The translations under genes were made by a program, and so were the position numbers. A stretch of DNA of 64,000 bases from a virus (taxonomy: Duplodnaviria; Heunggongvirae; Uroviricota; Caudoviricetes): the IMG/VR virus record IMGVR_UViG_3300042869_000717, positions 14,208 through 78,207 of that record. One strand, 5' to 3'. The notes beneath the pieces are model-generated. The model was not told the DNA's origin, did no database searches, and was given only the letters and a program-made list of their open reading frames with translations. Shown piece by piece: positions 4,501 to 54,897 of this stretch; position 1 is the first letter of the stretch, and the number at the start of each line of letters is the position of its first letter.

Positions 4501-4887
4501 ATGAAATATGTAATAACAGAATCTCAATTCAAAAGATTGACGGAAGATAAAGATAATGATTTTGAATCTTATCTAACAAAACGATTCCCAAAGATTAACG
4601 ATTTAAAAATGGAAAGAAGTAATAATGTAGTTTCAGGTCCACATCGTAGATATATTAATCCGGAAAATAATGAACTTTATTTTAGAGTTGTTTTTAAAAC
4701 AGTACCAAGTTGGGAATCGGGTGTTGGTGCTTCTGACTCAGATGAGTTTATTCGTCTATATGTATCCCCAAAAATATACGCATATATTAAAAAATACGGG
4801 ATGAATTTTGAATATGATTTAATGGGGTGGTTTAACAGAACTTATAATGAAAATGTAAATTCTGTTCTTAAAAAGGTGATGGAATAA
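4501..4887 (+). CDS. MKYIITESQ-leader family protein (paralog 1)
   Basis: N-terminus MKYVITESQFKRL; tandem paralog of 4890..5273 (shared ...YKFFNP.N..F.VV...E.IRLYV...WFN.TY... motifs). Confidence 0.65.
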   Translation: MKYVITESQFKRLTEDKDNDFESYLTKRFPKINDLKMERSNNVVSGPHRRYINPENNELYFRVVFKTVPSWESGVGASDSDEFIRLYVSPKIYAYIKKYGMNFEYDLMGWFNRTYNENVNSVLKKVME

Positions 4888-4889
4888 AT

Positions 4890-5273
4890 ATGAAATATAT
4901 TATAACAGAATCTCAATATGGTAAATTAATTGAACAACGAAAAAATTTGGTTCAAACCTTCATGGAGACAAAATTCCCTGAAATGGGTAGACTAAGAAAA
5001 AGACAAACTAGAAATATGACTTTAGGCCACGGATATAAATTTTTCAACCCAAAAACTAATGATGTGTTATTCCATGTTGTTAGTGGTGGTCCGGTTTATC
5101 ATGTGAAAGGTGGTGAAACAAAACCTCTTTACGAAGGTATTAGATTATATGTCAATTCAAGTTTATATGAGTCATTAGAAAATTATATAGGGAATTTTAA
5201 AGAAGAATTACTACAATGGTTTAATGAAACTTATAAACAACAAACTAATAGAGTTATGAGAGGAATTCGATAA
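4890..5273 (+). CDS. MKYIITESQ-leader family protein (paralog 2)
   Basis: N-terminus MKYIITESQYGKL; clear paralog of 4501..4887. Confidence 0.65.
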   Translation: MKYIITESQYGKLIEQRKNLVQTFMETKFPEMGRLRKRQTRNMTLGHGYKFFNPKTNDVLFHVVSGGPVYHVKGGETKPLYEGIRLYVNSSLYESLENYIGNFKEELLQWFNETYKQQTNRVMRGIR

Positions 5274-5313
5274 TCAACCATTCATTATTCTATAAGAATG
5301 TTTATAATTACAT

Positions 5314-5475
5314 ATGAAAGATACTGTAGGAACAATTTTAGTAGAAGTAGACAAGATTATATTAAAACCTTTTGAGGGTGAAGAAGAAATTTGGGAAGAA
5401 TCCAAATCTTTGATAAACACCATTGGAACCAAATTTATCTTATTTGAAGGTAAAAAGTATTATCCTGAAAAATAA
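5314..5475 (+). CDS. hypothetical small protein (53 aa, not in ORF track)
   Basis: ATG 5314, TAA 5473; ends immediately before terminator 5478-5503. Confidence 0.3.
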   Translation: MKDTVGTILVEVDKIILKPFEGEEEIWEESKSLINTIGTKFILFEGKKYYPEK

Positions 5476-5477
5476 TA

Positions 5478-5503
5478 GAACCCACCGACAGGTGGGTTTT
5501 TTG
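5478..5503 (+). terminator. rho-independent terminator (AACCCACC-GACA-GGTGGGTT + T6)
   Basis: hairpin + T-run; lies inside the N-terminal extension of track ORF 5423..6094, arguing for start at 5525. Confidence 0.75.
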
Positions 5504-5524
5504 TTCATCATCATATTTATTATT

Positions 5525-6094
5525 ATGAAATATATTATTACAGAAAAACAAAATAAGTTGTTAATGGAAGTTAGAGTTCCAAGAGAAGAACGAATTGAGT
5601 TATATAGAAATGAGGACGTTGTGGTCGTTATCCCATTAACACATCGAGCGTTACGTAAATACGCCACATATTGTCAATGGTGTATTATTAGAGATGTCCA
5701 TGAGTGGGAACAACATCATCAGGGAACATCTATGGTGATTGTTCAAAGACACCCAATACCAATTAAAAAAGGTATTACAGGTAATCCAACTTTTTATGAA
5801 ATATATTCATTACATAGATTAAGAAACGAATACGATGATTTGGAATATGTTAATGATGTTTTGAATTATAATTTTGAATCTGATGAGATTGCTTTGGAGT
5901 ATTACGAGGAATTAATTAATGATATAAATAATTTTGGTTTGAACTCCGTATATTACGGGAATGATAACGACATTTATGATTCAGGTGATAACTACTTACG
6001 AAGTTTTGGGTACGATATTAGTAATGTTCCCAATATGACACCCAAAATTATTAAAATAATGGATGATTATTTAGAATATAATACATTAAAATAA
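5525..6094 (+). CDS. MKYIITE-leader family protein
   Basis: N-terminus MKYIITEKQNKLL; track ORF 5423..6094 trimmed to conserved Met downstream of terminator. Confidence 0.6.
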   Translation: MKYIITEKQNKLLMEVRVPREERIELYRNEDVVVVIPLTHRALRKYATYCQWCIIRDVHEWEQHHQGTSMVIVQRHPIPIKKGITGNPTFYEIYSLHRLRNEYDDLEYVNDVLNYNFESDEIALEYYEELINDINNFGLNSVYYGNDNDIYDSGDNYLRSFGYDISNVPNMTPKIIKIMDDYLEYNTLK

Positions 6095-6101
6095 TACGTT
6101 T

Positions 6102-6419
6102 ATGACAAGAGAAGAAGTAAACCAATCACTCAAAATGTTTGAGAAATTTCTACAATCCGATAAAGGTCTCGAGATTGCTCATCGATATTCAGACGATATT
6201 TGGTTTAAGTTAGATGATATCCAAACAATTACCGGTGCCGGTGAAAGTTTATACGCAGGAGGGAAATATAATATTTTCATTAAAATTGGTCATCCGTTTA
6301 ATTCCACTGTAATGGTGAGTTGGAAAAACCAACCAAAGAAACAAGATATTGAAAAAGATTTAGAACAATATCTTCCATATTTTGGATTTACCTCTCAAGT
6401 GGGGATAGCAATAATGTAA
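6102..6419 (+). CDS. hypothetical protein
   Basis: ORF track 105 aa. Confidence 0.5.
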   Translation: MTREEVNQSLKMFEKFLQSDKGLEIAHRYSDDIWFKLDDIQTITGAGESLYAGGKYNIFIKIGHPFNSTVMVSWKNQPKKQDIEKDLEQYLPYFGFTSQVGIAIM

Positions 6420-8996: not shown

Positions 8997-9419
8997 ATGA
9001 TAAATAAAACTCAATTAGAATACGTAAGTGAATTTTTGGATGGTGTTACCGTTGTGGTTGTATTTGAAGACGACCCACTATATGAACAAGTTAAAGACTA
9101 TTTTAATGAGTATGGTTTTGGGTTTATGGTTCCGGGTAGTAATTTAATTATAATTGATGGAGAAATATTAGTTGGGCTGCCAGATGCCAAAGACATTTTA
9201 AAATTTATTGAAGCTCATGAGGTCACTCATGTATTATTAGGTCATGATGGACCAAGAAATGAACAAGATGAGATAGAAGCTGATTTGGGTGCCTATATTT
9301 TATTACAAGATAAAGGATATGATAAACCAATTGAATTACTTGTAAATAATTTCAAGGAAAGACATGGTATTGAGTTTAATAAAAAAATGACTGACAATAT
9401 TAAAGTCAGATTAGAATGA
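8997..9419 (+). CDS. HExxH motif protein, ImmA/IrrE-like putative zinc peptidase
   Basis: HEVTHVLLGH motif, 140 aa. Confidence 0.45.
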   Translation: MINKTQLEYVSEFLDGVTVVVVFEDDPLYEQVKDYFNEYGFGFMVPGSNLIIIDGEILVGLPDAKDILKFIEAHEVTHVLLGHDGPRNEQDEIEADLGAYILLQDKGYDKPIELLVNNFKERHGIEFNKKMTDNIKVRLE

Positions 9420-9682
9420 AGGTAATTATTAGTGAAAATCAAGAAGATAGATTAAAATCAGCAATTAAAGAAATAGTCGAAGATATTAAAGTCCCATTAT
9501 CAATAAAAGTCGATGTTGTATTTTCATCGACTGGTGCTACATATGTTTTAATTCCATTAAAAAATTATTTAATGAGTAAGGTAAGGGCAAAATATGAATC
9601 GTTAATTCGTAATAAAATAAAAAATTATATTGGTTTAGATGTTGAAGTTATAATGATGGAGAAATCAGATATTGATTCTTAA
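9416..9682 (+). CDS. hypothetical protein
   Basis: ORF track 88 aa, ATGA overlap. Confidence 0.45.
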   Translation: MKVIISENQEDRLKSAIKEIVEDIKVPLSIKVDVVFSSTGATYVLIPLKNYLMSKVRAKYESLIRNKIKNYIGLDVEVIMMEKSDIDS

Positions 9683-11213: not shown

Positions 11214-11561
11214 ATGAAATACATTATAACAGAAAGTCAAAAAAATCGAGGTATTCTCAAATACCTTAACACCGAATATGGTGATTTGAAACCATATAAA
11301 ACAGACGAATACCCTAACCACATATTCTTTATGAAAGATGGTGAAGTTATGTTTGACTATAATGAAAAAAATGGGGTTGCTCATGTCTCTTATACTCATA
11401 TTTGGTCATTTTTGAAATCCTTTTTTGAGTTAAATAATGAGGAAATAGAAGACCTAACGAAAGCGTGGGTGGAGGAACATTACAAATTGGAGGTGACAAC
11501 AACTATTGATGAATATTTGAGCCGTGTTTATTGGTGGAGGAACATTACAAATTGGAGGTGA
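11214..11561 (+). CDS. MKYIITESQ-leader family protein (3' end reads through first repeats of the CRISPR-like array; true stop uncertain)
   Basis: N-terminus MKYIITESQKNRG; last ~30 codons coincide with 36-bp repeats. Confidence 0.5.
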   Translation: MKYIITESQKNRGILKYLNTEYGDLKPYKTDEYPNHIFFMKDGEVMFDYNEKNGVAHVSYTHIWSFLKSFFELNNEEIEDLTKAWVEEHYKLEVTTTIDEYLSRVYWWRNITNWR

Positions 11562-11700
11562 CAACAACGCTTTTGCGTTACATCGAAAAAGGAAAAAGGT
11601 GGAGGAACATTACAAATTGGAGGTGACAACAACCCACATTGATTTATTTCGGAAAAAAAAGTCTGGTGGAGGAACAATACAAATTAAGTAAATTATGAAA
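11468..11700 (+). CRISPR. cas-less CRISPR-like mini-array: 3 identical 36-bp repeats (GGTGGAGGAACATTACAAATTGGAGGTGACAACAAC) + 1 degenerate terminal copy, spacers 29/29/31 bp
   Basis: repeats at 11468-11503, 11533-11568, 11598-11633, degenerate 11665-~11700; period 65-67 bp; alternative: diverged tandem duplication. Confidence 0.4.
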
Positions 11701-12060
11701 TACATTATAACAGAAAGTAAATTAAATCAAACGGTTAAAAATTACCTAAACAACACTTTGGATATTGAAAATATTAATTGGACTCGTTTAACTGATGATT
11801 GGGGTCAGGAACAAGACGCAATTGAATTTTATTTAGGTGATTATATGGATGATGAAACATTGTTCAGGTTATATGGTGAAGACTATTGGACCGGAGCATC
11901 AGATTACCGAAAACCATTAAGTCCAATGTTGTATGTTGAAGACCAAGGACTTCTTAACTCATTAGAAGGTTATTTTAATGATAATTGGAAAGAAGGATTT
12001 AAAGAATGGTTTGTTGAAACTTTCAAGATACCTGTTAACACAATAGAATATTACATATGA
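11695..12060 (+). CDS. MKYIITESK-leader family protein
   Basis: N-terminus MKYIITESKLNQT; start abuts degenerate repeat. Confidence 0.6.
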   Translation: MKYIITESKLNQTVKNYLNNTLDIENINWTRLTDDWGQEQDAIEFYLGDYMDDETLFRLYGEDYWTGASDYRKPLSPMLYVEDQGLLNSLEGYFNDNWKEGFKEWFVETFKIPVNTIEYYI

Positions 12061-12910: not shown

Positions 12911-13411
12911 ATGGGAACTAAAAGATTTACAATTACAGAATCAGAAATTAAATCCATCAAAAAACTTTACATGATGGAACAATCTGAAGAAAAAGAAGAT
13001 AGAAAATTCTGCCATGGTGGAAATGTTAGGTCATTAGACGAGATTATGGGAGATGACGACGCGGAAGATTATATTGAGGGAGTGTCAATTAGGAAAAACG
13101 GTATTAATGGTTTAGTTGATAGATTAGAACTATTGAAAACACTTAGATTGCATCCAAAAGTTTCTGATGGTGGTGAACATCTGGCATCAGAAATCATGAA
13201 CCATCTTAAATCATTCAAACCTTACAACTATTTTGACGAAACAAAAAAAGAATGTAATAAAGCGATGGATAAAATTATTGAACTTTATAAAGAAAATGAG
13301 CATGGGGAGGAATTAGTTAAAGACATTGAAAAGGTTTATTTAATGAATCATGTGTCCCCGCGGGCAAAAGAATTCTTAAAACACGGGATTTCAATGATTA
13401 AAGGTCGTTAA
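12911..13411 (+). CDS. ITESE-leader family protein
   Basis: N-terminus MGTKRFTITESEIKSIKKLYMMEQ resembles leader family. Confidence 0.55.
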   Translation: MGTKRFTITESEIKSIKKLYMMEQSEEKEDRKFCHGGNVRSLDEIMGDDDAEDYIEGVSIRKNGINGLVDRLELLKTLRLHPKVSDGGEHLASEIMNHLKSFKPYNYFDETKKECNKAMDKIIELYKENEHGEELVKDIEKVYLMNHVSPRAKEFLKHGISMIKGR

Positions 13412-15805: not shown

Positions 15806-16426
15806 TTGTTTGTCTATAAGAAATTTTAGACTAACAAGAGTATCTTTATCTAATTTAGGGATAAGTTTTTCGGTATTCTCCAATAATTTTCGTGGGTTAC
15901 GAGATTCTTGTACATTTTTTGGAGCTTCTTTAACCTCATCAACTTCCCAATCATTCATTTCCCAATTATCATATTCGGTATTTTTTAGAACACCGGAATA
16001 AACATCCCAATTACCATCGTTTCTTTGCATATTTAAAGAATCTATCACCCAATCTTTATCGTAAGATGAGAAACGAGTTTCATAATATTCGATAAATGTA
16101 CAGCTACCTTGGGTGGTATATTCAACTAAATAATCTTTAGGTTGTGGGATTATAAGATGTTCTATCATCGACTTATCATCATTAGATATTCGAGAAAGTA
16201 AACCACTATTAATTTCTAAAAACTTAATAAAAAACTGAACATCCTCTTCGACCACTGATTCGTTAAAATACGAGGATACTTGTTTAAGTATATCTTCATT
16301 ATCATCATATATGTCCTGATAATTATGAGTGATATCATCCCATTCAAATCCGTCTTCAATAAGTTTATTAGCGATAAAAACTAATTGTTTTTTTGGGAAT
16401 CTCGAAAAGTTACTTTGGTTTGCCAT
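15791..16426 (-). CDS. hypothetical protein
   Basis: ORF track 211 aa. Confidence 0.55.
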   Translation of the reverse strand: MANQSNFSRFPKKQLVFIANKLIEDGFEWDDITHNYQDIYDDNEDILKQVSSYFNESVVEEDVQFFIKFLEINSGLLSRISNDDKSMIEHLIIPQPKDYLVEYTTQGSCTFIEYYETRFSSYDKDWVIDSLNMQRNDGNWDVYSGVLKNTEYDNWEMNDWEVDEVKEAPKNVQESRNPRKLLENTEKLIPKLDKDTLVSLKFLIDKQLRNL

Positions 16427-16431
16427 ATTAA

Positions 16432-16466
16432 TAAATATAACAAAAGGTGGTTATTCACCACCTTTA
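16432..16466 (-). terminator. hairpin terminator (AAAGGTGG-TTATTCA-CCACCTTT) for minus-strand gene 16451..16753
   Basis: 8-bp stem overlapping stop codon, T-run on minus strand. Confidence 0.6.
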
Positions 16467-19513: not shown

Positions 19514-19637
19514 ACTTTTTTATTTCGTTAAGTATTAATTTTTCAACCCAATCATTTAATTTAATAGAATTATTATTACAATATTCCTTTAATTTTTGGT
19601 GGGTTTCTTTACTAATTATTAAAGTTTTTCTTTCCAT
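19500..19637 (-). CDS. small ribbon-helix-helix-like protein (45 aa, not in track), overlapping start of GIY-YIG gene
   Basis: MERKTLIISKETHQKLKEYCNNNSIKLNDWVEKLILNEIKKYDGK: beta strand + two helices typical of CopG/Arc RHH. Confidence 0.35.
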   Translation of the reverse strand: MERKTLIISKETHQKLKEYCNNNSIKLNDWVEKLILNEIKKYDGK

Positions 19638-19687
19638 ATTAATAAATATTATGGAAATGTAAAAAAGTATAAAAAAGTATAAAAAAA

Positions 19688-23829: not shown

Positions 23830-24450
23830 TTATTTGAGTTTTTTTAGTATTTTTCTGATTGTGACAGTCAAAGCTTGACCACTTAATCCAATAACTCCAG
23901 ATGCTAATAGTCGTTCAACTATTTGTAATGAACTTTGTCTTAAATTTGTTGAAGATTCAGCAATTGCCGTAATATCAAAAATAATTGGGATTAAAAAACT
24001 ATAAGCCGCTACTTCCATAAGTGACCCTATTGTTATGTTAATAGAACTTAAAAACCCTACAAACGCCGATTTTAATTCATGGCCCTTCGATAAAATTTGT
24101 TCAAATTGAGGTAAAACTCCTTCTTCTTTTATTTTTTCAATCAATTTACTAACACCTCTTTTATTTTCAAAAAAGAGCATTGATGCCACCGCAGCAAGGA
24201 TTAAAATCCCCTGTTCCTCGGTTAAATTAAAATTACCGGTTTTAATAAATTCGTCTAATGGTGCGATAAGACCACCAACCGAAGTTCCCCAAGTTAATAA
24301 CATCCTAAGGTTTATTCCATAAATTGCTTTGACACGATTAACTAAGTTTTCAGTGAAAGAATATAGTTCTTTCATGTCGTTAGTCATTTTAGATTTGTCT
24401 TGTTCTGTTAAAATTGTCTTTAACTGTGCTTCTGTGATTAAAAATTCCAT
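23830..24450 (-). CDS. hypothetical protein, partly hydrophobic
   Basis: ORF track 206 aa. Confidence 0.5.
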   Translation of the reverse strand: MEFLITEAQLKTILTEQDKSKMTNDMKELYSFTENLVNRVKAIYGINLRMLLTWGTSVGGLIAPLDEFIKTGNFNLTEEQGILILAAVASMLFFENKRGVSKLIEKIKEEGVLPQFEQILSKGHELKSAFVGFLSSINITIGSLMEVAAYSFLIPIIFDITAIAESSTNLRQSSLQIVERLLASGVIGLSGQALTVTIRKILKKLK

Positions 24451-24481
24451 AATAATAAATATATTGATTATATTTATAAAT

Positions 24482-35716: not shown

Positions 35717-37072
35717 ATGAGAATAGTTATAACAGAACAAGAAAAAAAAGACATTTTATCTTCCTATATTTTAATCGAAAATGTTAAACAAGCTAGAAAA
35801 TACGTTGAATTAAACCTACTTCCTAAAGATATATTAGAAAAACTAATATCTATTGACCCATCTAAAACAAATAAATATGTTGGATGGATGTCTAAAATAT
35901 GGATGAGTGAACAACCAGATTTAGACCAATTAAGAAATACGATTGAGGAATACGATGTTTTTTTAAATAAAGGTAAAACTAAAACAAAAGATATTAATCA
36001 GTTTAAAACTTTTAAAGATTTATATTCTGAGGTAGATGGTTTAAACCAATCAAGTGAAGGTGTTTCAAATAAAGGTTTAGAGTCGGATTATGACACAGTA
36101 GTAAATAATGAAGATTTACTAATTATGTCACCTCATACACACGAGGCGTCAAGAAAATTAGGGTTATCTCACTTCTCTTTTAGAGATTGTGGTAACGGTA
36201 AAAAAGATTCGGCTTGGTGTACAACTTTTAAATCGCCTGACCACTTTAATGACTATTACTATAAAAATAACGTAACTTTTTACTATATTAAGGTAAAATC
36301 ACCACAAATGATTGAAAAGTTAAAAGAGTCATTTCCTAACCGATGGGAAAAGATGGTAGTAGTGGCATTGGCGGTACTTAGTAATGGAACTATAGATGGT
36401 TATAATGGGTCAGATTTACAAATTAACTCTAAAGATATTCAAACATTTATATCTATACTAAACCTAAATAATATATTTGTTACAAGACGTTCGACTGGGG
36501 AACGTTCTAAAAATCATCAAATCGCTGAACAAAAGAAAATACAAAAATATATTAAAGATGGGTCTAAAGGAGATTTAATTCTTAACTCAACCAATACTTT
36601 AGGTGATTTAACATCAGTTGATGGAAGACTTGTATTAAATAATTGTAATTTTAAATCTTTAGAAAACTTAAAAAGTGTTACATCGTTAGAAATTCGTAAT
36701 TGTCCTAATTTAAAATCATTAAATATGTTAAAATATGTAAATATTTTAGTGATTTCTGAGACATCAATTGAAAATTTAGGTGTTGTAACATTCGCCGAAA
36801 TGATAGATATCCAACATTGTCCTAATTTAGAATCTTTGGGTAATATAAAATCGGCAAAATATATAAGAATTATGAATTGCCTTAATTTAAAGTCTTTGGG
36901 GAAATTAGAATCGGTAGAAAATTTATTTATCCAAAATTGCCCAATTAAGACTTTTGGTGAATTAAAAAGTGTGGGAGAAAATTTAAATATTATGCAAACA
37001 CCATTATCTAAAAAACATAATGAAAACGAAATAAGAAAAATGATTAATGTTGGTGGTGATATTAAACTTTAA
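35717..37072 (+). CDS. multi-domain protein: MRIVITEQE leader, 'WCTT' domain, C-terminal leucine-rich repeats (NCPNLKSL-type)
   Basis: N-terminus MRIVITEQEKKDIL; WCTT block shared with 21535..22707; ~6 LRR-like 22-aa repeats LxNCPNLKSLxxLKxV. Confidence 0.65.
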   Translation: MRIVITEQEKKDILSSYILIENVKQARKYVELNLLPKDILEKLISIDPSKTNKYVGWMSKIWMSEQPDLDQLRNTIEEYDVFLNKGKTKTKDINQFKTFKDLYSEVDGLNQSSEGVSNKGLESDYDTVVNNEDLLIMSPHTHEASRKLGLSHFSFRDCGNGKKDSAWCTTFKSPDHFNDYYYKNNVTFYYIKVKSPQMIEKLKESFPNRWEKMVVVALAVLSNGTIDGYNGSDLQINSKDIQTFISILNLNNIFVTRRSTGERSKNHQIAEQKKIQKYIKDGSKGDLILNSTNTLGDLTSVDGRLVLNNCNFKSLENLKSVTSLEIRNCPNLKSLNMLKYVNILVISETSIENLGVVTFAEMIDIQHCPNLESLGNIKSAKYIRIMNCLNLKSLGKLESVENLFIQNCPIKTFGELKSVGENLNIMQTPLSKKHNENEIRKMINVGGDIKL

Positions 37073-38873: not shown

Positions 38874-39797
38874 ATGAAGAAAAGATATATTATAGAAGAA
38901 TCCGAAAAGAATGAAATTTTATCAATGCACAAATCATTGATGAAGGAACAAATACAACCTATTGTACCTGTCACGCCAGTTTCAAACACGGGTGAAGAAA
39001 TATTAAGAAAGGCTAAAGCTGCGGGATGTTTAATTAATGGTCAATTATTTACAAATCCTGATAAAACTAAATTTGTTTATCGTGCAACTACTAAAAGTGG
39101 TAAAGAAATCGACTTTTATGGTGATATGACTTATAAATTTAGAGATGGAAGTAAAAGTGGTAATTGGAAATGTGATAAGATTGCTCAAATGGATTCTCAA
39201 CAAGCGACACAAGCATCTCAAAAAGCAACAGTAGATACTGACATTGCAAGAGAATTGGAACAATACGGATGGAAAAAAAGAGCTGACATTGCCGTAACAG
39301 ATACAGAACTTTCTCAATTATACCAAAAACATCCAAAATACGATTTATATAAATTAAAGGTTAATACTGCAAAACAAGGTGGTTATACTCCGGAACAACA
39401 AGCTTTTATCAATCAATGGATAAAAAACGAAGGATATGTTGAAAAACTAACCCCTGAACAATTAGCATCTGGGACTTATCAAAAAGTTAATGTTCAAGGT
39501 AGTGAACAATATTTCCCTGGAGGTTTAATCATGTATAAACCAGCTGCCGGAGAACAAGATAAAAAAGTGTGTCGAGATAAAGTGAAACAATATTATGATT
39601 ATTGGAAAACTAAAAGAGAAGACATACCTCAAAGTCAATTTGATTCATTAAAATCTCAAGTTCAGGCTTGTGCCAACCAATTTAACGGTAAATGGGGTGG
39701 AGTTTTTAGTATTGTTGACAATTATATTAAAACATTAAGAGGTGGAACGGGTGGGCCATTATCTTATGGTGAAGACGCTAAATGGAGATTGAAATAA
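38874..39797 (+). CDS. IIEESEK-leader family protein
   Basis: N-terminus MKKRYIIEESEKNEILSMHKSLMKEQ. Confidence 0.55.
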   Translation: MKKRYIIEESEKNEILSMHKSLMKEQIQPIVPVTPVSNTGEEILRKAKAAGCLINGQLFTNPDKTKFVYRATTKSGKEIDFYGDMTYKFRDGSKSGNWKCDKIAQMDSQQATQASQKATVDTDIARELEQYGWKKRADIAVTDTELSQLYQKHPKYDLYKLKVNTAKQGGYTPEQQAFINQWIKNEGYVEKLTPEQLASGTYQKVNVQGSEQYFPGGLIMYKPAAGEQDKKVCRDKVKQYYDYWKTKREDIPQSQFDSLKSQVQACANQFNGKWGGVFSIVDNYIKTLRGGTGGPLSYGEDAKWRLK

Positions 39798-41700: not shown

Positions 41701-41916
41701 ATAATAAGTTTTTTTTTAAATCTAATAAATTTTGGTAATAAAAAAAAGGGGTAGACCCCTTTTTAAATGTTAAATTATTCGATTGTATAAGGTTTCCAAT
41801 CCTAATAACACAACCCTTCTCATATTTGTATGATTTCCAAAAGTCCCAATTTATAATTGGTCATCATCATATTAATAAATATCTTCAAAATAGTTTGTAG
41901 TATCAATTTTATTTTA

Positions 41917-44924: not shown

Positions 44925-44939
44925 CAAAATAAAGTACAT

Positions 44940-46079: not shown

Positions 46080-46107
46080 TATATTTATTAATAAACAAAT
46101 TAAGTAA

Positions 46108-46972: not shown

Positions 46973-46986
46973 CAAAAAAAATATAT

Positions 46987-47058: not shown

Positions 47059-47063
47059 CAATT

Positions 47064-47834: not shown

Positions 47835-47836
47835 CT

Positions 47837-48013
47837 ATGATAACAGAAAGTCAGTATAAAACAGCACTTAAAGTGGTGTCGGAATACAAGAAACAACAAA
47901 AATATTTAAAACCTAAGGAATGTCAACATTATAATATGGATTGGAGCATTGAAGAACAGAGATACGTTTGTCTTGATTGTGATTTCAAGGGACCTAAAAA
48001 AAGTGAGGAATAA
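47837..48013 (+). CDS. small zinc-ribbon protein with MITESQ N-terminus (truncated leader?)
   Basis: MITESQYKTALK...; CQHYNMDW...CLDC. Confidence 0.45.
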   Translation: MITESQYKTALKVVSEYKKQQKYLKPKECQHYNMDWSIEEQRYVCLDCDFKGPKKSEE

Positions 48014-48240
48014 TGTCAAATAAAATAAAATTCATTGGTAATGGTGATGATATATTCAAAAATGAAATTCATTTTACATCACCGGTTGGAAGTGATTACA
48101 CTTTATGTGGTTTAACACTTGATGGGGATTTTATGACTTGTGGTCAATTTGTAAAAACAAATGAAAATGTAAATTGTGAAGACTGTCAAAAAATTGTTAA
48201 CTTTTCAAAAACCATTAAAAAGACTTGGAAAACAATTTAA
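48013..48240 (+). CDS. small Cys-rich protein
   Basis: ORF track 75 aa, ATGA overlap. Confidence 0.45.
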   Translation: MSNKIKFIGNGDDIFKNEIHFTSPVGSDYTLCGLTLDGDFMTCGQFVKTNENVNCEDCQKIVNFSKTIKKTWKTI

Positions 48241-48256
48241 AGAAAATTCATAATTA

Positions 48257-48287
48257 TTTGGTAGATTAAATTTTAGTTGTATCTTTG
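48257..48287 (+). promoter_or_regulatory. promoter TTTG(48257)/TATCTTTG(48280)
   Basis: 19-bp spacing, 23 nt upstream of ATG 48310. Confidence 0.5.
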
Positions 48288-48309
48288 TCAAAATCAAAAA
48301 AGATAAGAT

Positions 48310-49152
48310 ATGGATAAGTTAAAAATAATGTTTAGTGAGAATTGGAAATCAATAATATTTTCATATTCATTGTTCATGATTAATGCGATATTGATGGTTA
48401 TGTATCCCAAAGTTTTGGGTAATGCAATTGACCACTTAATTACCAAAGATTATTCATACATATGGTATTTGGTTTCTACATTTGCATCAATTATGTTCTT
48501 CGGGTACATCAGTAAAATTTATGACACTAAAGTATTCTCCGGGATTTATAGGAGATTTGCCTCTATTGAAACAAGTAATCAACTTGATAATGATGTTGAG
48601 ACAACAAAAATCAACGGAAGATTAACCTTAATGCACTATATTGTCCTGTTTTTTGAACGAGATATGTTATTGGTAATACAGACGATTATTGGTTTGGTTG
48701 GCGCCATCTACTTCTTGGCAATGGTAAGTTTACCGATTGTTGGATTCTTGATTATTACAACAATATTAATCTTGGGGGCAACAGCATATTATTCACCAAA
48801 AATTGCCAACATTACAAGTAAATATAATGATTTGTCTGAAGAACAAACTGATGTGATTGGTACAAGAAAAATTGCCTCAATTAATAATTTATTAAAGAGA
48901 GGTCAGTTCTTATCACTTAAAATGTCAAGTATTGATGCTAAGTTTTCAATTTGGATTCAAGGTATTGTTTATGGAAGTGTGACAGCATTATTAACATACT
49001 ACGTAATGTACAATAAGGTGAGTGTGGGAAGTGTATTCTCAACTTATAGATATATGTTTGATTTTTGTAATGCTCTTCTTGGGTTACCAACAATTTTAAC
49101 ATCATATATTAATATTAAGGACGTTATTAAAAGATTAGAAACAGAAAATTAA
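48310..49152 (+). CDS. ABC-exporter-like transmembrane domain protein (6 TM), no ATPase domain in window
   Basis: 280 aa with 6 predicted TM helices arranged like type I ABC exporter TMD; next ORF is not an NBD. Confidence 0.5.
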   Translation: MDKLKIMFSENWKSIIFSYSLFMINAILMVMYPKVLGNAIDHLITKDYSYIWYLVSTFASIMFFGYISKIYDTKVFSGIYRRFASIETSNQLDNDVETTKINGRLTLMHYIVLFFERDMLLVIQTIIGLVGAIYFLAMVSLPIVGFLIITTILILGATAYYSPKIANITSKYNDLSEEQTDVIGTRKIASINNLLKRGQFLSLKMSSIDAKFSIWIQGIVYGSVTALLTYYVMYNKVSVGSVFSTYRYMFDFCNALLGLPTILTSYINIKDVIKRLETEN

Positions 49153-49157
49153 ATATT

Positions 49158-49433
49158 ATGTCAGAAGTAAAAAAACAACGTGAGAGAGTTATTGTGGCCG
49201 GAGATGGTGAATTATCATTTGGAATGGGAATTGAGAACAGTGTTAAATTACCATTCATTACGATTGATTCATTGTCAGAACCGAATGAGGTTGGTGTTGA
49301 TGTGTTAGGTGGTGAAAGTGAGGAAATTCTAACAATCATCTTTAAGAATCTCAAATCATTAGAGGTTTTGGAAAAAATGTGTAGTGAGTCAAGAAAATAT
49401 TTGGAAAATAAAGATAAAAATTTGGTAGATTAA
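49158..49433 (+). CDS. hypothetical protein
   Basis: ORF track 91 aa. Confidence 0.45.
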   Translation: MSEVKKQRERVIVAGDGELSFGMGIENSVKLPFITIDSLSEPNEVGVDVLGGESEEILTIIFKNLKSLEVLEKMCSESRKYLENKDKNLVD

Positions 49434-49443
49434 AAAATCGTAG

Positions 49444-49451
49444 TATCTTTG
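49444..49451 (+). promoter_or_regulatory. -7 box TATCTTTG upstream of 49474
   Basis: TAnnTTTG. Confidence 0.45.
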
Positions 49452-49473
49452 TCCCCACAAAAACTGATATATT

Positions 49474-49797
49474 ATGTTATTAGAAAACGAAATTTTAGAT
49501 TTTACGAATTGGTTGTATGACAATGGGTGGGAATTATCATCCGAAGGAAACTATACCAATATCCAAACTGATGAGGTTAAAAGTGTTGGAGAATTGATTA
49601 TTAAAAGTGAAACAATCAATGATTACGTACCACAAGCATTTCAAGTTGGTAATGTGGTTAGAGATAAAAATAGTGGAAATGAGGTTGAATTGACTAGAAT
49701 TGATTGGCATAAATACGACCGGGCATACACATATTGGTACGAAGATGAAGAAGGTGAGGAATGGTACGGATTTGAAGACGAATTTGAGAAAATATGA
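49474..49797 (+). CDS. hypothetical protein
   Basis: ORF track 107 aa. Confidence 0.5.
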   Translation: MLLENEILDFTNWLYDNGWELSSEGNYTNIQTDEVKSVGELIIKSETINDYVPQAFQVGNVVRDKNSGNEVELTRIDWHKYDRAYTYWYEDEEGEEWYGFEDEFEKI

Positions 49798-49979
49798 TTG
49801 AGAGTGATTTAACAACAGAAGAGCTAATAAGTGAAATTATTAAATTGGAATGTGAGATAACTGAATCAATTTTTAAAGGACATAAAGCTAATGATGGTGA
49901 CCAATATGTCAATCATAGAAAAAGATTATCTCTTTTAAGAAAAACACTCCGGAGTAGGAATATAATCGTATCTTTGTAA
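49794..49979 (+). CDS. hypothetical small protein
   Basis: ORF track 61 aa. Confidence 0.4.
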   Translation: MIESDLTTEELISEIIKLECEITESIFKGHKANDGDQYVNHRKRLSLLRKTLRSRNIIVSL

Positions 49980-50045
49980 AAATTATTACATATACACCTT
50001 GTTATGTGTATGTAAAAAACGTAAAAAAATTAAACTTTTAAATAT

Positions 50046-50270
50046 ATGAAACGAACTAAATTAACAGATTTTATTTTGAAAAACCTACAATGGACTGGTT
50101 TATTTTTGTGTGAACAAATTTACTGGAGTAGATTGAGTAAAACACTGAATGACATCAAAAACAACATAGATGACATTGAAACAATTTCACACAAAAATAA
50201 TGATGTAATAAAGGGGTTTTCAAAAGAAAACTTCGATAATAGAACACTGTATAAAGTTGAGGTAGTTTAA
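50046..50270 (+). CDS. hypothetical protein
   Basis: ORF track 74 aa; TTGTTATGTGTATGTAAAA motif ~40 nt upstream. Confidence 0.45.
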   Translation: MKRTKLTDFILKNLQWTGLFLCEQIYWSRLSKTLNDIKNNIDDIETISHKNNDVIKGFSKENFDNRTLYKVEVV

Positions 50271-50380
50271 TTTTAGTTTTTTATTACACATAACGGTTGG
50301 GTGTAAAAAATTGTTTTAATGTTTTTTACACTTTGTTATGTTTAGTTTTAAAAAATTTATACAACTTAAAAATATATTAT

Positions 50381-50650
50381 ATGAAAGAATGGATAGAGAT
50401 AAATTCAGAACAAGATTTACCAAATGAAGAATTATTTTGTTGGTGGGTAAATAGAACAAATGGTCATATGTTTCCAAGTAAATTGAAAGGACAAATGGGA
50501 AGAAGTTTGTCTCATTTAACATTTAGTCACTATATGGTTATTGATGATGTACCAACGCCACCAACAGAACGAAAACCACTTGAAGAACAAACTTCTTGGA
50601 CTAAATTTGATGTAAACAAAATACTTCAAGACAAATTAAAAAACAAATAA
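50381..50650 (+). CDS. hypothetical protein (track ORF 50297.. trimmed to MKEWIEI)
   Basis: TTTGTTATGT motif ~47 nt upstream. Confidence 0.45.
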   Translation: MKEWIEINSEQDLPNEELFCWWVNRTNGHMFPSKLKGQMGRSLSHLTFSHYMVIDDVPTPPTERKPLEEQTSWTKFDVNKILQDKLKNK

Positions 50651-50898
50651 ATTTCTTAAAATTAAACATAACGATTGAGTATAAAAGAAGTGCGGTTGTG
50701 TAACAACTATCTTGCAAGGTAGATGCGGTTCAACTCCGTAACAGAGGATTTCCAATGTCGAACTTTTGGAGCATTTCTTTTATACTTTGTTATAAAATCG
50801 TTTTAATGTTTTATAACGTCCGATGATAAACAATCGTTTTAATGTTGTTTATCATTTGTTATGTGTATGTAAAATAAAAATTATACAAATTTAAAATT

Positions 50899-51111
50899 AT
50901 GGGACGAAATAGAAACGGAAGTAATGAATTATTAGAATCTTTAATCGGAATGAATAAAGAATCAGGAACAGAATTATGTAAAGAAAATGATTATAAAGTT
51001 AGAATAACAAGAGAAGATTCTAATAATTATGTAATCACAATGGATTTACGATTTGATAGAATAAACTTGGAGATTGATAAAGGATTAATAACCAAATGTG
51101 ATATAGGATAA
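50899..51111 (+). CDS. hypothetical protein
   Basis: ORF track 70 aa; TTTGTTATGTGTATGTAAAA 40 nt upstream. Confidence 0.45.
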   Translation: MGRNRNGSNELLESLIGMNKESGTELCKENDYKVRITREDSNNYVITMDLRFDRINLEIDKGLITKCDIG

Positions 51112-51393
51112 TCATAATTTTTATTTTATTACACATAACTATGTTATATATGTAATATTGTGTAAAACATTAATTATTAGTAAGTTATATTATGAAAAAC
51201 CAAAAAATTATAAAGATTTGTGAAGAAAAGTTTATATATCTGAACTACTCCCCTAAAACTGGAAATAATTATTTATCGCATGTTAAACCTTTCTTAGAAA
51301 GTTTATACTCACGTTTCAAATAATATTTTAAGTAAAGTAAAACTTCCTATATAATTTTCTAATTTTTAATTTGGTTGGTTAAAAATTTATTCC

Positions 51394-51401
51394 TACCTTT
51401 G
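51394..51401 (+). promoter_or_regulatory. -7 box TACCTTTG (with TTTG at ~51370)
   Basis: upstream of 51453. Confidence 0.45.
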
Positions 51402-51452
51402 TAAAAAAATTAAAGATTAACTCTTGGTGTAAGAGGATTAAAAATAGAAATT

Positions 51453-51695
51453 ATGATATTAAAAAAAGATATGGTTGAAGGGTGGTATAATGGTTTCTGT
51501 AGAAACAACCACATGGCATATTGGGATGGTGAAAAGTTCCAATACATTCGATATCAGTTCGGGTTTTATTTGGACACCATTGAACATTTTGAGGATGTTA
51601 AAGAAAAAAGATTGGACGGATTTGTTCCGGTTGAAAGGGTTGAAAGAATCCCCATTGATGAACAATGGAAGATTAAAGATGAAATAGGATATTAA
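51453..51695 (+). CDS. hypothetical protein
   Basis: ORF track 80 aa. Confidence 0.45.
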   Translation: MILKKDMVEGWYNGFCRNNHMAYWDGEKFQYIRYQFGFYLDTIEHFEDVKEKRLDGFVPVERVERIPIDEQWKIKDEIGY

Positions 51696-51855
51696 GATGA
51701 CAGAATACGAAGCAAAACAAAGATTAAAGTGGTTTATTGATGGATATTTTATCCATTGTTTGGGAAGTTTATTCTCCAAAATGTCCACAGAAAGAATTTG
51801 TGAATTATACAATGTTGAGATGTCATATTTTAGAGAAGATATTAAATAAACAAAT

Positions 51856-52242
51856 ATGGGTAGATATTATTTCCAAGTAGATAGAGTGGCGTCAATGAGT
51901 TTCCAACCGGAAAAAGAAACAGGTTATAAGTGGTTTGATAAAGTACCATCAAAACCTAAAACATTTTTAGGGATTAAGTATGGTATGACAGAAGAAACAC
52001 CTGAAGGGTGGAGTAATTATAATTCCGGAATAAACCGAAGAACTACGGAATATTTAAGTGAATACAAATGGTATCTTATCAATGAAGAAACTAAAGAAAT
52101 TCGACAAAAATCTCAAATAACCGTTAATTTATCTGATAAGACATCACATAGCACGTATTTTGATTCTGAAGAAGAAGCGGAAGAATATATGTATGGATTA
52201 CAAGAATCAACCGGTAAGGAGTTTTTTGGAATTGACACATAA
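51856..52242 (+). CDS. hypothetical protein
   Basis: ORF track 128 aa. Confidence 0.5.
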   Translation: MGRYYFQVDRVASMSFQPEKETGYKWFDKVPSKPKTFLGIKYGMTEETPEGWSNYNSGINRRTTEYLSEYKWYLINEETKEIRQKSQITVNLSDKTSHSTYFDSEEEAEEYMYGLQESTGKEFFGIDT

Positions 52243-52412
52243 AAATTAAATTTACACATAGAAAGACAAACAGCGTTAAAGTTAGAAAATGTAACACTAC
52301 AAGAAGTGTTATGTTTGTTGAGTAAGTTAGTTTTAGGGAGGAATGAAATAGTTTGAAAATAAATAGCCCTTCTAATTATCCCAATCTTGATGGATGTGTG
52401 ATTTATTAAAAC

Positions 52413-52480
52413 ACCCGCTACGTAGTCACGGCCGGATAACACGTACAGACAAGGGAGAAAAGGTCAGTCCGGGTGTTTTT
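52413..52480 (+). ncRNA. structured element closed by long-range stem ACACCCG...CGGGTGT followed by T6 (terminator-like or small RNA)
   Basis: 7-bp GC-rich closing stem enclosing ~50 nt, then TTTTTT. Confidence 0.3.
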
Positions 52481-52552
52481 TAAAATAGAAAACCTACAGT
52501 GCTCATAGAATGATATGGATACAATTCCTGTTCTTTAGGTCGTAGGTTAAAT

Positions 52553-52622
52553 GGTCTTGTTGGTCGTGGCGACCGGTTAGTCTGCAAAACTAATAGAGTG
52601 GGTTCGATTCCCCCCGAGACCT
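52553..52622 (+). tRNA. tRNA-Cys (anticodon GCA), short D-loop, one T-stem mismatch
   Basis: acceptor GGTCTTG/CGAGACC, anticodon stem TTAGT/ACTAA loop CTGCAAA, T-loop TTCGATT. Confidence 0.45.
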
Positions 52623-52855
52623 CAAATAACATAGTTTTTTAACTCGCGAAAATCGGCTTGAATCTCTGAATGGAAAACGCGTTTCTTAGTAAGAGGTGAA
52701 ATAGAAAATTAGATTCGGAGGCATCCGGGTTGTGTGAAAAAGTAGGGGGGTTACCCGGCGGGGGACTACAAAAAATTATGTTATTATTTTTGGTGAAACA
52801 TAGGTTATGGTGACCCTTTTTAGTTTTTTAAGATATTTATATTAAAATAAAGTAT

Positions 52856-53503
52856 ATGAATTTAAAAACTGTAACAAAAGAAGAATTATTTGAAATATTA
52901 AATAATTCAAAATCAATGAGAGAGGTTATTTTATTATTTAATTTATCACCAAATGGGTCGGGTGGTTATAGAAATATTAAAGACAGAATTATTAAATTGG
53001 GTTTAGAGATTCCTAAATATAATTATTATGGTACAGGACCTAAAGAAGTTAGATTAGACGAGGACGTTTTTGTTAAAGATTCAACATTTGCGAGAGGTAA
53101 AATTAAAAATAGAATATTAAAGAAAAATTTACTTGAGTATAAATGTGTCGAATGTGGCAATAATGGGGAATGGAATGGTAAAAATATTAGCCTACATTTA
53201 GACCATATTAATGGGGTTAATAATGACAATAGAATAGAAAATTTAAGATTTTTATGTCCTAATTGTCACTCCCAAACTAGCACATATTCCGGGAAATCTA
53301 ATAAAATTAAATACCATTGTGAGTGTGGTGGTACAAAAGATAAAAAAAGTGATAAATGTATCAAATGTACAAATAAACAAAATAGAAAAGTTGAGAGACC
53401 ATCCATAGAACAAATAAAACAAGATGTAATTAATCTTGGGTATAAAGGAACAGGTCGTAAATATGGTGTTAGTGATAACGCCATTAGAAAATGGTTAAAA
53501 TAA
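52856..53503 (+). CDS. HNH homing endonuclease (paralog of 57424..58221)
   Basis: CVECGNNGEWNGKNISLHLDHINGVNNDNRIENLRFLCPNCHSQT; shared N- and C-terminal modules with 57424 gene. Confidence 0.8.
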   Translation: MNLKTVTKEELFEILNNSKSMREVILLFNLSPNGSGGYRNIKDRIIKLGLEIPKYNYYGTGPKEVRLDEDVFVKDSTFARGKIKNRILKKNLLEYKCVECGNNGEWNGKNISLHLDHINGVNNDNRIENLRFLCPNCHSQTSTYSGKSNKIKYHCECGGTKDKKSDKCIKCTNKQNRKVERPSIEQIKQDVINLGYKGTGRKYGVSDNAIRKWLK

Positions 53504-53504
53504 T

Positions 53505-53575
53505 ACGTTTGTGATGTAATGGTAGCATAATTCTCTCCAAAAGAATTTGTATGGGTTCGAGACCTATCAAACGTG
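53505..53575 (+). tRNA. tRNA-Trp (anticodon CCA)
   Basis: acceptor ACGTTTG/CAAACGT perfect, D-arm ATGT..GCAT, anticodon stem ATTCT/AGAAT loop CTCCAAA, T-arm ATGGG-TTCGAGA-CCTAT. Confidence 0.65.
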
Positions 53576-53737
53576 CAAGAAGACGGAGAGTGATTTAAGG
53601 GTATAATTCCGTTAGGTGACCCCTTGAGGGTCTCTCCCGAAGAAATATTGTAAAACTAAACTTCCACATAAGGTGAAGTCGGTCATAATTGTTGGTGTGG
53701 ATGTACTTCAAAGCCGTCTGTTGTTTTACAAAAAAAA

Positions 53738-53808
53738 GGGATAAAAGCACATAAGGATGTGCAAGCATCAGACGGTGCGAGGCATGGGTTCGAATCCCAA
53801 ATATTCCA
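53738..53808 (+). tRNA. tRNA-like (D-arm GCAC..GTGC and T-arm ATGGG-TTCGAAT-CCCAA present; anticodon arm unresolved)
   Basis: partial cloverleaf only. Confidence 0.25.
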
Positions 53809-54337
53809 CAAAAACAGACACATAACTTAAGTCAGTGGTAATACGGATGTGAGGTTCGGAGTAATCAACCAAACCAAGAGACCGCCGAGGGTAAACACGG
53901 GTATGATGCCCGTCTAGTCCCCTAAGACGTAAATATCGGAGAATCATTCTGTCTGTTTTTAATTATTTGGGTAACCTTTCCGGTGTAGCGAATCGGGCCA
54001 TTCGGTGAGGGTGGTGTCAGAGAATAAGGTTAATTGGAGTACAATGTATTGTAATATTTCTAGAAAAAAAGATATGTCAAGGCTCTCGGTGCGAATCCCC
54101 TGTTACCCACAAAATTTATCGATACGGTGAATACCGGCGATAATCGCCGTAGAAATACGGTGAATGTAAATAAAAAGTTTAACAACCGGGGTGTCCATAC
54201 TCTAAAAAATTAATGGACTAGCGTGTTGATAGGGGTGACCTCCCAATAGTAGCACCGTAGTAATACGGTAAAGGATAGATAAGGACTAGTACGCCGGTGA
54301 CGAACACGACGAATTCCGGAATTCCCATGTAGCCCGC

Positions 54338-54372
54338 TACGACCCGAGGGCGGGGTTGTTAAACTTTTTTAA
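54338..54372 (+). terminator. hairpin CCCG-AGGG-CGGG + T6, closing a ~170-nt region bounded by AACAACC...GGTTGTT long-range pairing
   Basis: T-run after GC hairpin at end of 0.8-kb noncoding stretch. Confidence 0.45.
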
Positions 54373-54510
54373 TAATATTACTTATGATTAAAATACCTTC
54401 ACCTCGAAGAAATTATCCATTTCCGATAATTGTTAAAACAATATTATCTATACCGGTTTAAAAAAAAATGTATTTGAATAGTAATTCATTATGTTAAGAT
54501 ATTTATTAGT

Positions 54511-54897
54511 ATGAGAAAATTTATAATTACCGAAGAAGAAAAAGACGATATATTAAACCAACACAAAGAAATGATGGATAAACCAAAACTTCCGGAGAAT
54601 AGAAAAATATTAGATTTTGATATAACTCCAATGAGTTTACTTAAATTTAAGTCTCAGGGGTTAACACCGTATTATTACGATGGAGATACCAATATTATTG
54701 AAATAACAAGTCCAATTATAGGGAAGACATATAACACTATACCAAAAGAAGTGTTCTTATTAACTCCGGATGAATACGATAAGATTAAAAAATTATCTGA
54801 CAATATTAAGGAAATGATTGAACTTAAAATGAATGCAATTAAATTGTTTAAACAATACATTCCGGCTGTTTTAGATGAACTTATAGAAAATAAATAA
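54511..54897 (+). CDS. FIITEEE-leader family protein
   Basis: N-terminus MRKFIITEEEKDDILNQHKEMM. Confidence 0.55.
   Translation: MRKFIITEEEKDDILNQHKEMMDKPKLPENRKILDFDITPMSLLKFKSQGLTPYYYDGDTNIIEITSPIIGKTYNTIPKEVFLLTPDEYDKIKKLSDNIKEMIELKMNAIKLFKQYIPAVLDELIENK

Follow-up and report, generated by a model that had tools for sequence, protein, structure and literature searches.

A conserved N-terminal peptide on sequence-unrelated phage proteins as a candidate capsid-targeting propeptide

Proteins encoded by a 64,000-nucleotide (nt) stretch of the Caudoviricetes record IMGVR_UViG_3300042869_000717 in IMG/VR (positions 14,208 to 78,207 of the record; hereafter the window) share a short N-terminal peptide, the leader, on bodies that are for the most part unrelated to one another. 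We interpret this peptide, M-(K/R)-(Y/I/F)-(I/L/V)-(I/V)-(T/S)-E with a short amphipathic helix after it, as a modular N-terminal address tag, and a capsid-targeting propeptide of the T4 kind is the reading that our results and the analogy with T4 support best. Our confidence in it is evenly balanced, because every step from expression to injection is one that we infer. A previous sequence-only reading of the window had proposed a capsid-targeting leader ending in I-x-E, and the points of that proposal that could be tested are all consistent with it: selection on the peptide, modularity, exposure in structural models, a clade with an S77 protease, a comparable predicted site in the capsid protein, a shared candidate promoter box and, for one carrier family, a virion homolog in phage PA5oct. 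The part that did not stand is the protease that it had singled out, a ClpP.

Distribution, conservation and modularity of the leader

A simple codon-usage gene call yielded about 113 window proteins, in whose first ten residues the pattern [ILVF][ILV]TE occurs nine times against an expectation of 0.14, with two further matches in the remaining 15.7k residues. The significance of this N-terminal enrichment (Poisson P ~7e-14) survives the collapsing of paralogs. Every gene start that had been listed as carrying the leader is present where it was reported, and two additional carriers were found, 24450(-) with MEFLITEAQL and 9416 with MKVIISENQ (Table 1). The description of the downstream sequences as unrelated had to be amended for 4501, 4890, 11214 and 11695, which form one family because they match over their full length in BLAST (E values of 1e-25 for 4501/4890, 2e-5 for 4890/11695 and 1e-4 for 11214/11695), and it is correct for the remaining carriers. 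Beyond the leader, 5525, 12911, 24450(-), 35717, 38874, 54511, 9416, 10243 and 58977 show no similarity to the 4501 family (for 5525, by BLAST), and they are mutually unalike except for a 27-residue N-terminal match between 38874 and 54511. By sequence comparison, the window thus appears to hold about ten unrelated carrier groups. Pfam and PHROGs searches on ten window carriers returned nothing except a sub-threshold match to a leucine-rich repeat (LRR).

The leader takes two forms. Type A (MKYIITESQLxxhIxxYL) is carried by proteins of 100-125 amino acids (aa) that are frequently arrayed, and type B (M(x)(K/R)(K/R)FIITE(E/D)EKxxIxx(L/M)(Y/H)) is found on 35717, 38874 and 54511 and, in related contigs, on peptidoglycan-binding, M23 peptidase and membrane-anchored proteins. 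Scanning IMG/VR with the back-translated sequence of M-K-Y-I-I-T-E identified at least 115 stretches, with up to six tandem leader copies per locus; loci on related viral contigs are designated here by L-numbers.

Codon usage in 139 distinct MKYIITE genes indicates that the conservation acts on the protein. The codons for K2, I4, T6 and E7 occur in the same proportions as in gene bodies, and deviations are confined to Y3 and I5, where TAC and ATA, respectively, are over-used. Positions 8-10, which were free in the search pattern, are S in 54%, Q in 58% and L/Y in 61% of cases, and the replacements seen in homologs are conservative (Y/I/F/L, I/V/L, T/S, K/R), giving starts such as MKL-, MKV-, MKI- and MR- and cores such as -ISE-. 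In the 4890 family, which comprises 232 metagenomic homologs with no named member and no Pfam assignment, the first nine residues are the best conserved (3.78 versus ~2.4 bits per column), and conservation of T6 and E7 reaches at least 90% in the A3 alignment of this family, which was chosen without reference to the leader motif. The 54511 family provides an independent case, with 3.87 bits over the first 9-10 residues versus 3.1-3.4 over the rest. Since synonymous sites vary as they do in gene bodies, the peptide itself is under selection, as had been proposed; synonymous sites as conserved as nonsynonymous ones, the pattern expected of a DNA-level element, were looked for in the 139 genes and not found.

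This result bears directly on the possibility that the conserved 5' end serves as a site for recombination or cassette shuffling, with the peptide as a by-product. Many leader genes do lie behind a terminator hairpin and a promoter box, leader genes form tandem arrays, a 65-nt repeat connects 11214, at its end, with the start of 11695, and gene content at this spot varies among assemblies. In T4-type phages, promoter-stem-loop mobile cassettes have a comparable layout, with a hairpin and a promoter flanking small novel open reading frames (ORFs) in hyperplastic regions, but those elements are DNA-level and lie outside the coding region, whereas here the conserved part is a peptide. Leader genes without a promoter box are also common (204 of 274 leader ORFs in related contigs), the replacements are physico-chemically conservative, and we reject a DNA element, as largely ruled out and extremely improbable, because the synonymous positions of the leader vary about as freely as those of gene bodies. 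The leader arrays and the 65-nt repeat nevertheless indicate that recombination shapes these loci. The repeat unit is present in three to four tandem copies at 11468-11700, spanning the 3' end of 11214 and the spacer before 11695, and it looks like a recombination scar within the paralog array; in the metagenomic variant L002, gene 11214 was not called.

Modularity was assessed on 285 distinct leader ORFs from 1.06 Mb of leader-containing loci, which were clustered by BLAST after removal of their first 25 residues and resolved into 107 body clusters. Glu is residue 7 in 86 of the 107 cluster representatives, the invariance of the Glu in this set being built in by how the set was chosen. Pfam confirmed fusions of the leader to PG_binding_1, Phage_lysozyme plus LysM, Phage_lysozyme2 plus SH3_3, Peptidase_M23 and DUF723. 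A single diverged superfamily was considered as an explanation for the shared N-terminus and rejected because these fusion partners are distinct in Pfam. The leader is also present or absent as a unit: the 54511 family comprises about 100 clusters with a 24-residue leader versus about 19 without it, which begin MKNT... or MENT... at the position of residue 25, and the DNA 5' of a leaderless copy contains a terminator and no hidden leader coding sequence. Similarly, window gene 2014 (MELNKIIKKVLREAVG) has an ortholog in another phage (L030) that begins MKYIITESQYNLINEALG, with a full MKYIITESQ leader. Leader genes cluster in variable regions, their density per 10 kb being 2.0 in the window, 2.7 in the selected loci and 0.15 around head modules.

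AlphaFold2 models of two carriers predict an exposed heptapeptide followed by a short helix. In the model of 4890 (predicted local distance difference test (pLDDT) score 87), residues 1-6 are coil and residues 7-28 form a helix that precedes an alpha/beta body; in that of 54511 (pLDDT 85), residues 1-7 are coil, residues 8-19 helix and residues 20-31 a low-confidence linker leading to a body with pLDDT above 90. The leader lacks the hydrophobic core of ~7-20 residues, placed behind a basic N-region, that would mark a Sec, Tat, lipoprotein or signal-arrest-release (SAR) signal; its hydrophobic residues number only three, and T-E and an amphipathic helix come next.

Host clade, head genes and the TATTTAT box

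The window has about 30% G+C and short, tightly packed genes. Megablast of its 9.5-kb core region revealed no close DNA match among 50,697 deposited phage records. A tblastn search with the 26-aa consensus leader returned chance matches alone, the query being too short to inform; neither search found a cultured phage bearing the tag. The window sequence is also present on metagenomic contigs of up to 294-315 kb.

The large ORFs of leader-containing loci place their phages among distant relatives of T4. Pfam identified Gp23 (1e-71), Portal_T4 (9e-74), tail sheath and type IX secretion sorting domains. In L044/L091, the portal gene, two small genes, a protease gene, an acidic scaffold gene and the capsid gene follow each other in T4 order, with a leader gene 1.6 kb from this head module. 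The L044/L091 protease matches T4 gp21 (phmmer, 1.5e-15), and PF03420 (Peptidase S77) was detected on all of its best 120 homologs, some of them on contigs of up to 324 kb; none of these 120 is on a contig of either length recorded for the window phage (293,729 or 314,729 bp). The clade capsid protein is nearest (~40% identity) to those of Flavobacterium phage immuto, Microcystis phage Mel-JY01 and Rhodothermus phage RM378, and in immuto, a cultured relative, a gene of the same module is annotated as "prohead core protein serine protease". Gene starts in the clade follow A-rich leaders without a Shine-Dalgarno sequence, which fits Bacteroidota hosts. The leader-bearing phages are distant T4 relatives, large low-GC myophages probably of Bacteroidota.

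Several window genes have counterparts in these phages. Proteins 20607, 21233 and 22707 are, respectively, 58%, 52% and 38% identical to products of genes beside the capsid gene in head loci, and the window shares a 319-nt DNA match with one head locus. The ORF at 3505-3948 (+; 147 aa) is similar to the C-terminal part of major capsid proteins of the gp23 type, with 44% identity over 41 aa to the immuto capsid protein and a tblastn match to the L194 capsid gene (E 4e-12, 34% over 74 aa), and may be a capsid-gene fragment or a small paralog distant from any head module. A basic, Lys/Ser-rich protein of 49 aa, encoded at 15052-15201 (-), shares 50% identity with an immuto protein of 45 aa, whose gene has a TATTTAT box upstream.

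This box recurs at a fixed distance from start codons. The sequence TATTTAT-N4-ATG occurs at 15 window sites for about one expected, with three more at N5 spacing, and leader genes stand at 8 of these 18 sites. In related contigs it lies directly upstream of 70 (26%) of the 274 leader ORFs, and many of the leader ORFs without it are internal array members. The box also stands directly 5' of the portal gene in 23 of 80 head-module loci and, in L044, ahead of the protease (17 nt) and scaffold (25 nt) genes. Its presence at portal, protease and scaffold genes makes it a candidate for the late promoter of the clade, with the ATG about at the transcription start, in which case the N4 spacing would yield leaderless mRNAs. 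The idea that leaderless translation needs the leader peptide was rejected because of both the portal, which has a predicted leaderless mRNA and no tag, and the boxless leader ORFs.

A related explanation is that M-K-Y-I-I is a translation-favourable start and T-E-S-Q a helix N-cap, both reached by convergent optimisation in an AT-rich genome with weak or absent Shine-Dalgarno sequences and often leaderless mRNAs. In a library of 250,000 variants, expression was highest with K|N-Y|I at codons 3-5, partly via the amino acids themselves (PMC6920384), and the resemblance of M-K-Y-I to this optimum makes the explanation plausible for the first four residues. The helix beginning at or just past E7 in both models, the A-rich upstream regions without a Shine-Dalgarno sequence, the many ATGs 4 nt past the box and the over-use of TAC and ATA agree with it as well. 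However, the late genes with the highest expression do not carry the tag (capsid MGALLES, portal MAEQNY, scaffold MTEKSI, sheath MATAQAN), even where, as for the portal, the mRNA is predicted to be leaderless. The ramp motif of Verma et al. 2019 is a loose two-residue preference at codons 3-5, in contrast to the fixed nine-residue peptide found here; a generic optimum would not fix nine successive residues and an invariant Glu over 107 unrelated bodies, nor does it account for the dispensable helix and linker after the tag. We therefore consider translational optimisation quite unlikely.

Capsid targeting and competing explanations

The end of the conserved heptapeptide resembles the maturation sites of T4 head proteins. 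In the T4 sequences, read from NC_000866, IPII and IPIII begin MKTYQEFIAE|A, IPI begins MKTFKEFTSTTTPVSTITE|A (TITE|A), gp24 begins MAKINELLRE|S and gp23 contains ...SFLTE|AE, where the bars mark the established T4 cut positions. The leader core I-I-T-E|S has the hydrophobic P3 and the P1 Glu of these sites and, with I/V/L at P3, T/S at P2 and E at P1, fits the (L/I)-x-E prohead-protease motif. Cleavage is C-terminal to Glu, and T4 capsid-targeting sequences (CTSs) are 10-20 residues long (PMC5694885). Putative sites of the same kind were found in the clade. The capsid proteins have YLINE|AA (L044 and 13 other loci) or QIVSE|AN (immuto) in alignment with the T4 gp23 cut, the L044 protein after the portal begins MNKFGALKSKLLNKLTE|SY, two immuto paralogs adjoining the terminase begin M(A)(D/E)NF.L..FL(T/V)E|NKL, and another immuto protein has ...KLAGIITE|SQF at residues 19-25. 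Beyond the capsid site, hh[TSN]E matches in the L044 head-module proteins are few and scattered; the scaffold and the protease have one each.

By analogy with T4 IPI-III, the tagged proteins would be made late in infection, and the tag would dock them on the scaffolding core of the assembling prohead. A gp21-type (S77) prohead protease would then cut past the invariant Glu (I-T-E|S) and remove a 7-residue propeptide, leaving mature proteins that would remain in the head and reach the host with the DNA. The cargo would be a large, fast-evolving set of proteins that includes cell-wall hydrolases. The T-even internal proteins are diverse defence proteins that have only a conserved CTS in common (PMC3012670). 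As in T4 IPI, IPII, IPIII and Alt, a short N-terminal peptide is found here on otherwise unrelated, fast-evolving and mostly small proteins, whose genes, like those of IPI-III, lie close to tRNA and lysozyme genes in variable regions; at its end the peptide has the hydrophobic-x-Glu of the gp21 motif, and the clade has gp20, gp21 and gp23 homologs. The two systems differ in the peptide itself (MKYIITE here, MKTYQEFIAE in T4), in propeptide length (7 versus 10-19 residues), in the conservation that here reaches the helix past the cut and in number, with tens of genes per genome here, cell-wall hydrolases among them, versus three or four in T4; packaging and cleavage are inferred here. A second parallel is provided by phiKZ, 201phi2-1 and SPN3US, in which many head-internal proteins, paralog families too, are cut after Glu by a gp21-related protease, and the N-terminal 15 residues of SPN3US gp53 and gp54, with cleavage motifs, are identical (PMC5694885). 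In those phages, in contrast, the motifs are A/S/G-x-E, propeptides mostly exceed 100 residues, and no single short tag extends across unrelated families.

A link between one carrier and a virion protein was also detected. By hhalign, the "WCT" domain common to 35717, 22707 and a leader-bearing protein of L092 has a homolog in residues 29-192 of PA5oct EST35_0205 (probability 97.8%, E 8e-13), which is annotated as a structural protein by electrospray ionization tandem mass spectrometry (ESI-MS/MS) and is encoded between the terminase and the next gene, probably the portal. The N-terminus of EST35_0205, MKLFEVFTLYED, is not the tag, and phage lineage and host differ.

Several observations weigh against capsid targeting. 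The repertoire, at the gene densities given above, would be far beyond any known CTS set, and some of the cargo in it is unlikely, for example a PCD-like protein of 91 aa and proteins that resemble homing endonucleases or nucleases. Conservation runs past the proposed cut (P1' S, P2' Q, P6' L/I), so that part of the signal would stay on the mature protein. The 7-residue propeptide is shorter than any T4 CTS, and the consensus MKYIITESQ has no similarity to MKTYQEFIAE past M-K and the terminal hydrophobic-x-E. Neither the 64-kb window nor its 10-kb flanks yielded an S77 protease, portal or capsid gene, and the window appears tied to the T4-like clade through shared genes, the gp23-fragment-like ORF, the leader and the TATTTAT box. 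Finally, M-K-Y-I lies near a known translation-favourable start (PMC6920384), and the phage-encoded ClpP and Clp ATPase leave room for a degron.

The ClpP-family protease in which the sequence-only reading had seen a possible processing enzyme is present and a genuine member of the Clp family (S14), but this is the wrong class for maturation cleavage at (L/I)-x-E. Its neighbours are unrelated small genes, with no portal or capsid gene adjoining, and it probably partners a 671-aa ClpA/B/C-like double AAA+ ATPase encoded about 9 kb past the window end. Among the 80 matches listed for each, a capsid-protein scan and a ClpP scan had no contig in common, a comparison too shallow to be informative. 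The pair would give the phage a Clp proteolytic machine of its own; L119 16701-17176 is listed with the window ClpP. The tag could accordingly be an N-terminal degron that feeds this ClpP and Clp ATPase for timed turnover, and, as an exposed Met-basic-hydrophobic stretch, it is similar to a class of N-terminal signals recognised by ClpX. It is, however, difficult to see why degradation should be needed for secreted-type cell-wall hydrolases and for about 100 families, and a degron leaves unexplained both the match to T4 maturation sites and the box common to many leader genes and head genes. Apart from the Clp genes themselves nothing points to a degron, and we consider it very unlikely.

The tag might instead be an uncleaved interaction, localisation or export label without capsid loading, for instance a docking strand and helix or an envelope sorting signal. 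Its modularity, its exposure in the models and the conservation of the helix past E7 would suit such a label, as would the many envelope-active carriers (lysozymes, an M23 peptidase, peptidoglycan-binding domains and C-terminally transmembrane-anchored proteins) and the leaderless 54511-family copy beside a holin gene. Three hydrophobic residues and then T-E, however, do not make a signal of the Sec, Tat or SAR type, and most carriers are soluble, small and without envelope features. A T4-type protease, which is present in the clade, requires precisely the combination of the invariant Glu and I/V/L at P3. We consider a label of this sort unlikely. In a variant to which we give little credence, the tag is a phage-specific sorting signal that takes cell-wall hydrolases, peptidoglycan-binding or membrane-anchored proteins and small effectors to a common destination by an undescribed phage route, with envelope export or hand-over to Clp as possibilities.

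The holin neighbour of the leaderless gene (L283 1501-2022) belongs to Phage_holin_10, and downstream of 54511 in the window lie a lipoprotein-like ORF (55152-55394) and a transmembrane ORF (55279-55530); the surroundings of the 54511 family could be a lysis neighbourhood.

Further window features and implications

Some window proteins have N-termini akin to parts of the leader. "Helix-only" N-termini, which resemble the leader past Glu7 (MELNKIIKKVLREA, MMKEQIRNILKNYL, MLEKQIKRAILEAKD, MEQELKIVRKLL), were noted on genes 2014, 6419, 39808 and 16774 (+) and 1273 (-). In the protein encoded at 37801-38865 (+), a leader-like core is placed internally (...KKEIGIIEE|QYVS, residues 33-41) and is followed by a Gly/Ala-rich hydrophobic stretch and then, by eye, a C-terminal peptidoglycan-binding-like motif that matches no Pfam family; this arrangement may be a longer-propeptide form of the same signal. 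HExxH-type motifs without a Pfam match occur in the products of 2014-3429 (HELMH), 8997-9419 (HEVTH) and 22854-23828 (HEIEH), all on the + strand; two of these three genes have a TATTTAT box, and orthologs of 2014 in L030 and L079 bear the leader.

The window contains 23-27 tRNA genes, with HNH and GIY-YIG endonuclease genes between them, and also codes for thymidylate synthase, an RNA ligase-like gene, ClpP and several cell-wall enzymes. The tRNA block (43788-58802) comprises 23 genes detected by ARAGORN and four by Rfam only; HNH-type endonuclease genes lie within it at 46108, 47325, 52856 and 57424, and a tRNA-like gene at 57181-57257 has a four-base anticodon.

Table 1. Leader genes, TATTTAT box sites and other features of the window
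Position	Strand	Feature	N-terminus	Length	Remarks
4501..4887	+	Leader gene, type A	MKYVITESQ, MKYVITESQFKRL	128 aa	Small-protein paralog family; terminator hairpin and TATTTAT-N4-ATG box upstream
4890..5273	+	Leader gene, type A	MKYIITESQ, MKYIITESQYGKL	127 aa	Paralog of 4501
5525..6094	+	Leader gene	MKYIITEKQ, MKYIITEKQNKLL	189 aa	TATTTAT box upstream
9416..9682	+	Variant leader	MKVIISENQ, MKVIISENQEDRL	88 aa	
10243..10941	+	Variant leader with three extra residues	MGKKIKVRLTEQEL / MGKKIKVRLTEQELIDL		TATTTAT box upstream; leader, then low-complexity linker, then weak glucosaminidase-like domain (residues 109-211)
11214..11561	+	Leader gene, type A	MKYIITESQ, MKYIITESQKNRG	115 aa	Paralog family; 3' end inside 65-nt tandem repeat
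11695..12060	+	Leader gene, type A	MKYIITESK, MKYIITESKLNQT	121 aa	Paralog family
12911..13411	+	Leader gene, type B	MGTKRFTITESE / MGTKRFTITESEIKSIKKLY	166 aa	TATTTAT box upstream
23830..24450	-	Leader gene	MEFLITEAQL, MEFLITEAQLKTILTEQ	206 aa	TATTTAT box upstream; hydrophobic Gly-rich segments; L051 ortholog begins MKYIITESQLKTIMMEQ
35717..37072	+	Leader gene, type B	MRIVITEQE, MRIVITEQEKKDILSSY	451 aa	TATTTAT-N5-ATG box upstream; WCT domain and LRR-like repeats
38874..39797	+	Leader gene, type B	MKKRYIIEESEK / MKKRYIIEESEKNEILSMHK	307 aa	Pro/Val-rich linker after leader
47837..48013	+	Doubtful member	MITESQYKTAL	58 aa	Start uncertain; overlaps the end of, or directly follows, an HNH endonuclease gene
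54511..54897	+	Leader gene, type B	MRKFIITEEE, MRKFIITEEEKDDILNQHKE	128 aa	TATTTAT box upstream
58977..59282	+	Weak variant	MDKKILTEEL, MDKKILTEELGD	101 aa	
40577..41320	-	ClpP-family protease			Pfam CLP_protease, 171 bits
4490..4503	+	TATTTAT-N4-ATG			
5514	+	TATTTAT-N4-ATG			
10232	+	TATTTAT-N4-ATG			
12900	+	TATTTAT-N4-ATG			
16763	+	TATTTAT-N4-ATG			
24471	+	TATTTAT-N4-ATG			
42553	+	TATTTAT-N4-ATG			
54500	+	TATTTAT-N4-ATG			
1271..1284	-	TATTTAT-N4-ATG			
16424..16437	-	TATTTAT-N4-ATG			
19635..19648	-	TATTTAT-N4-ATG			
24448..24461	-	TATTTAT-N4-ATG			
41868..41881	-	TATTTAT-N4-ATG			
62066..62079	-	TATTTAT-N4-ATG			
62996..63009	-	TATTTAT-N4-ATG			
2002		TATTTAT-N5-ATG			
22842		TATTTAT-N5-ATG			
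35705		TATTTAT-N5-ATG			
44176-44246		tRNA, Rfam only			
45530-45667		tRNA, Rfam only		138 nt	Possibly intron-containing
56799-56872		tRNA, Rfam only			
58730-58802		tRNA, Rfam only			

If the leader is a capsid-targeting propeptide, one regular expression would suffice to list the arsenal of injected proteins in an abundant, uncultivated clade of freshwater jumbo phages. The sample analysed here already has hundreds of families, most without an assigned function, and the set would be far larger and more diverse than that of the T-even internal proteins, a known source of anti-restriction factors. It would be a rich source of new proteins for anti-defence and host takeover and of cell-wall enzymes delivered by the virion, and a tag of 7-20 residues could package foreign proteins into phages of Bacteroidota, as the T4 CTS does in E. 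coli. The TATTTAT-N4-ATG box, in turn, suggests how this lineage expresses late, leaderless genes.

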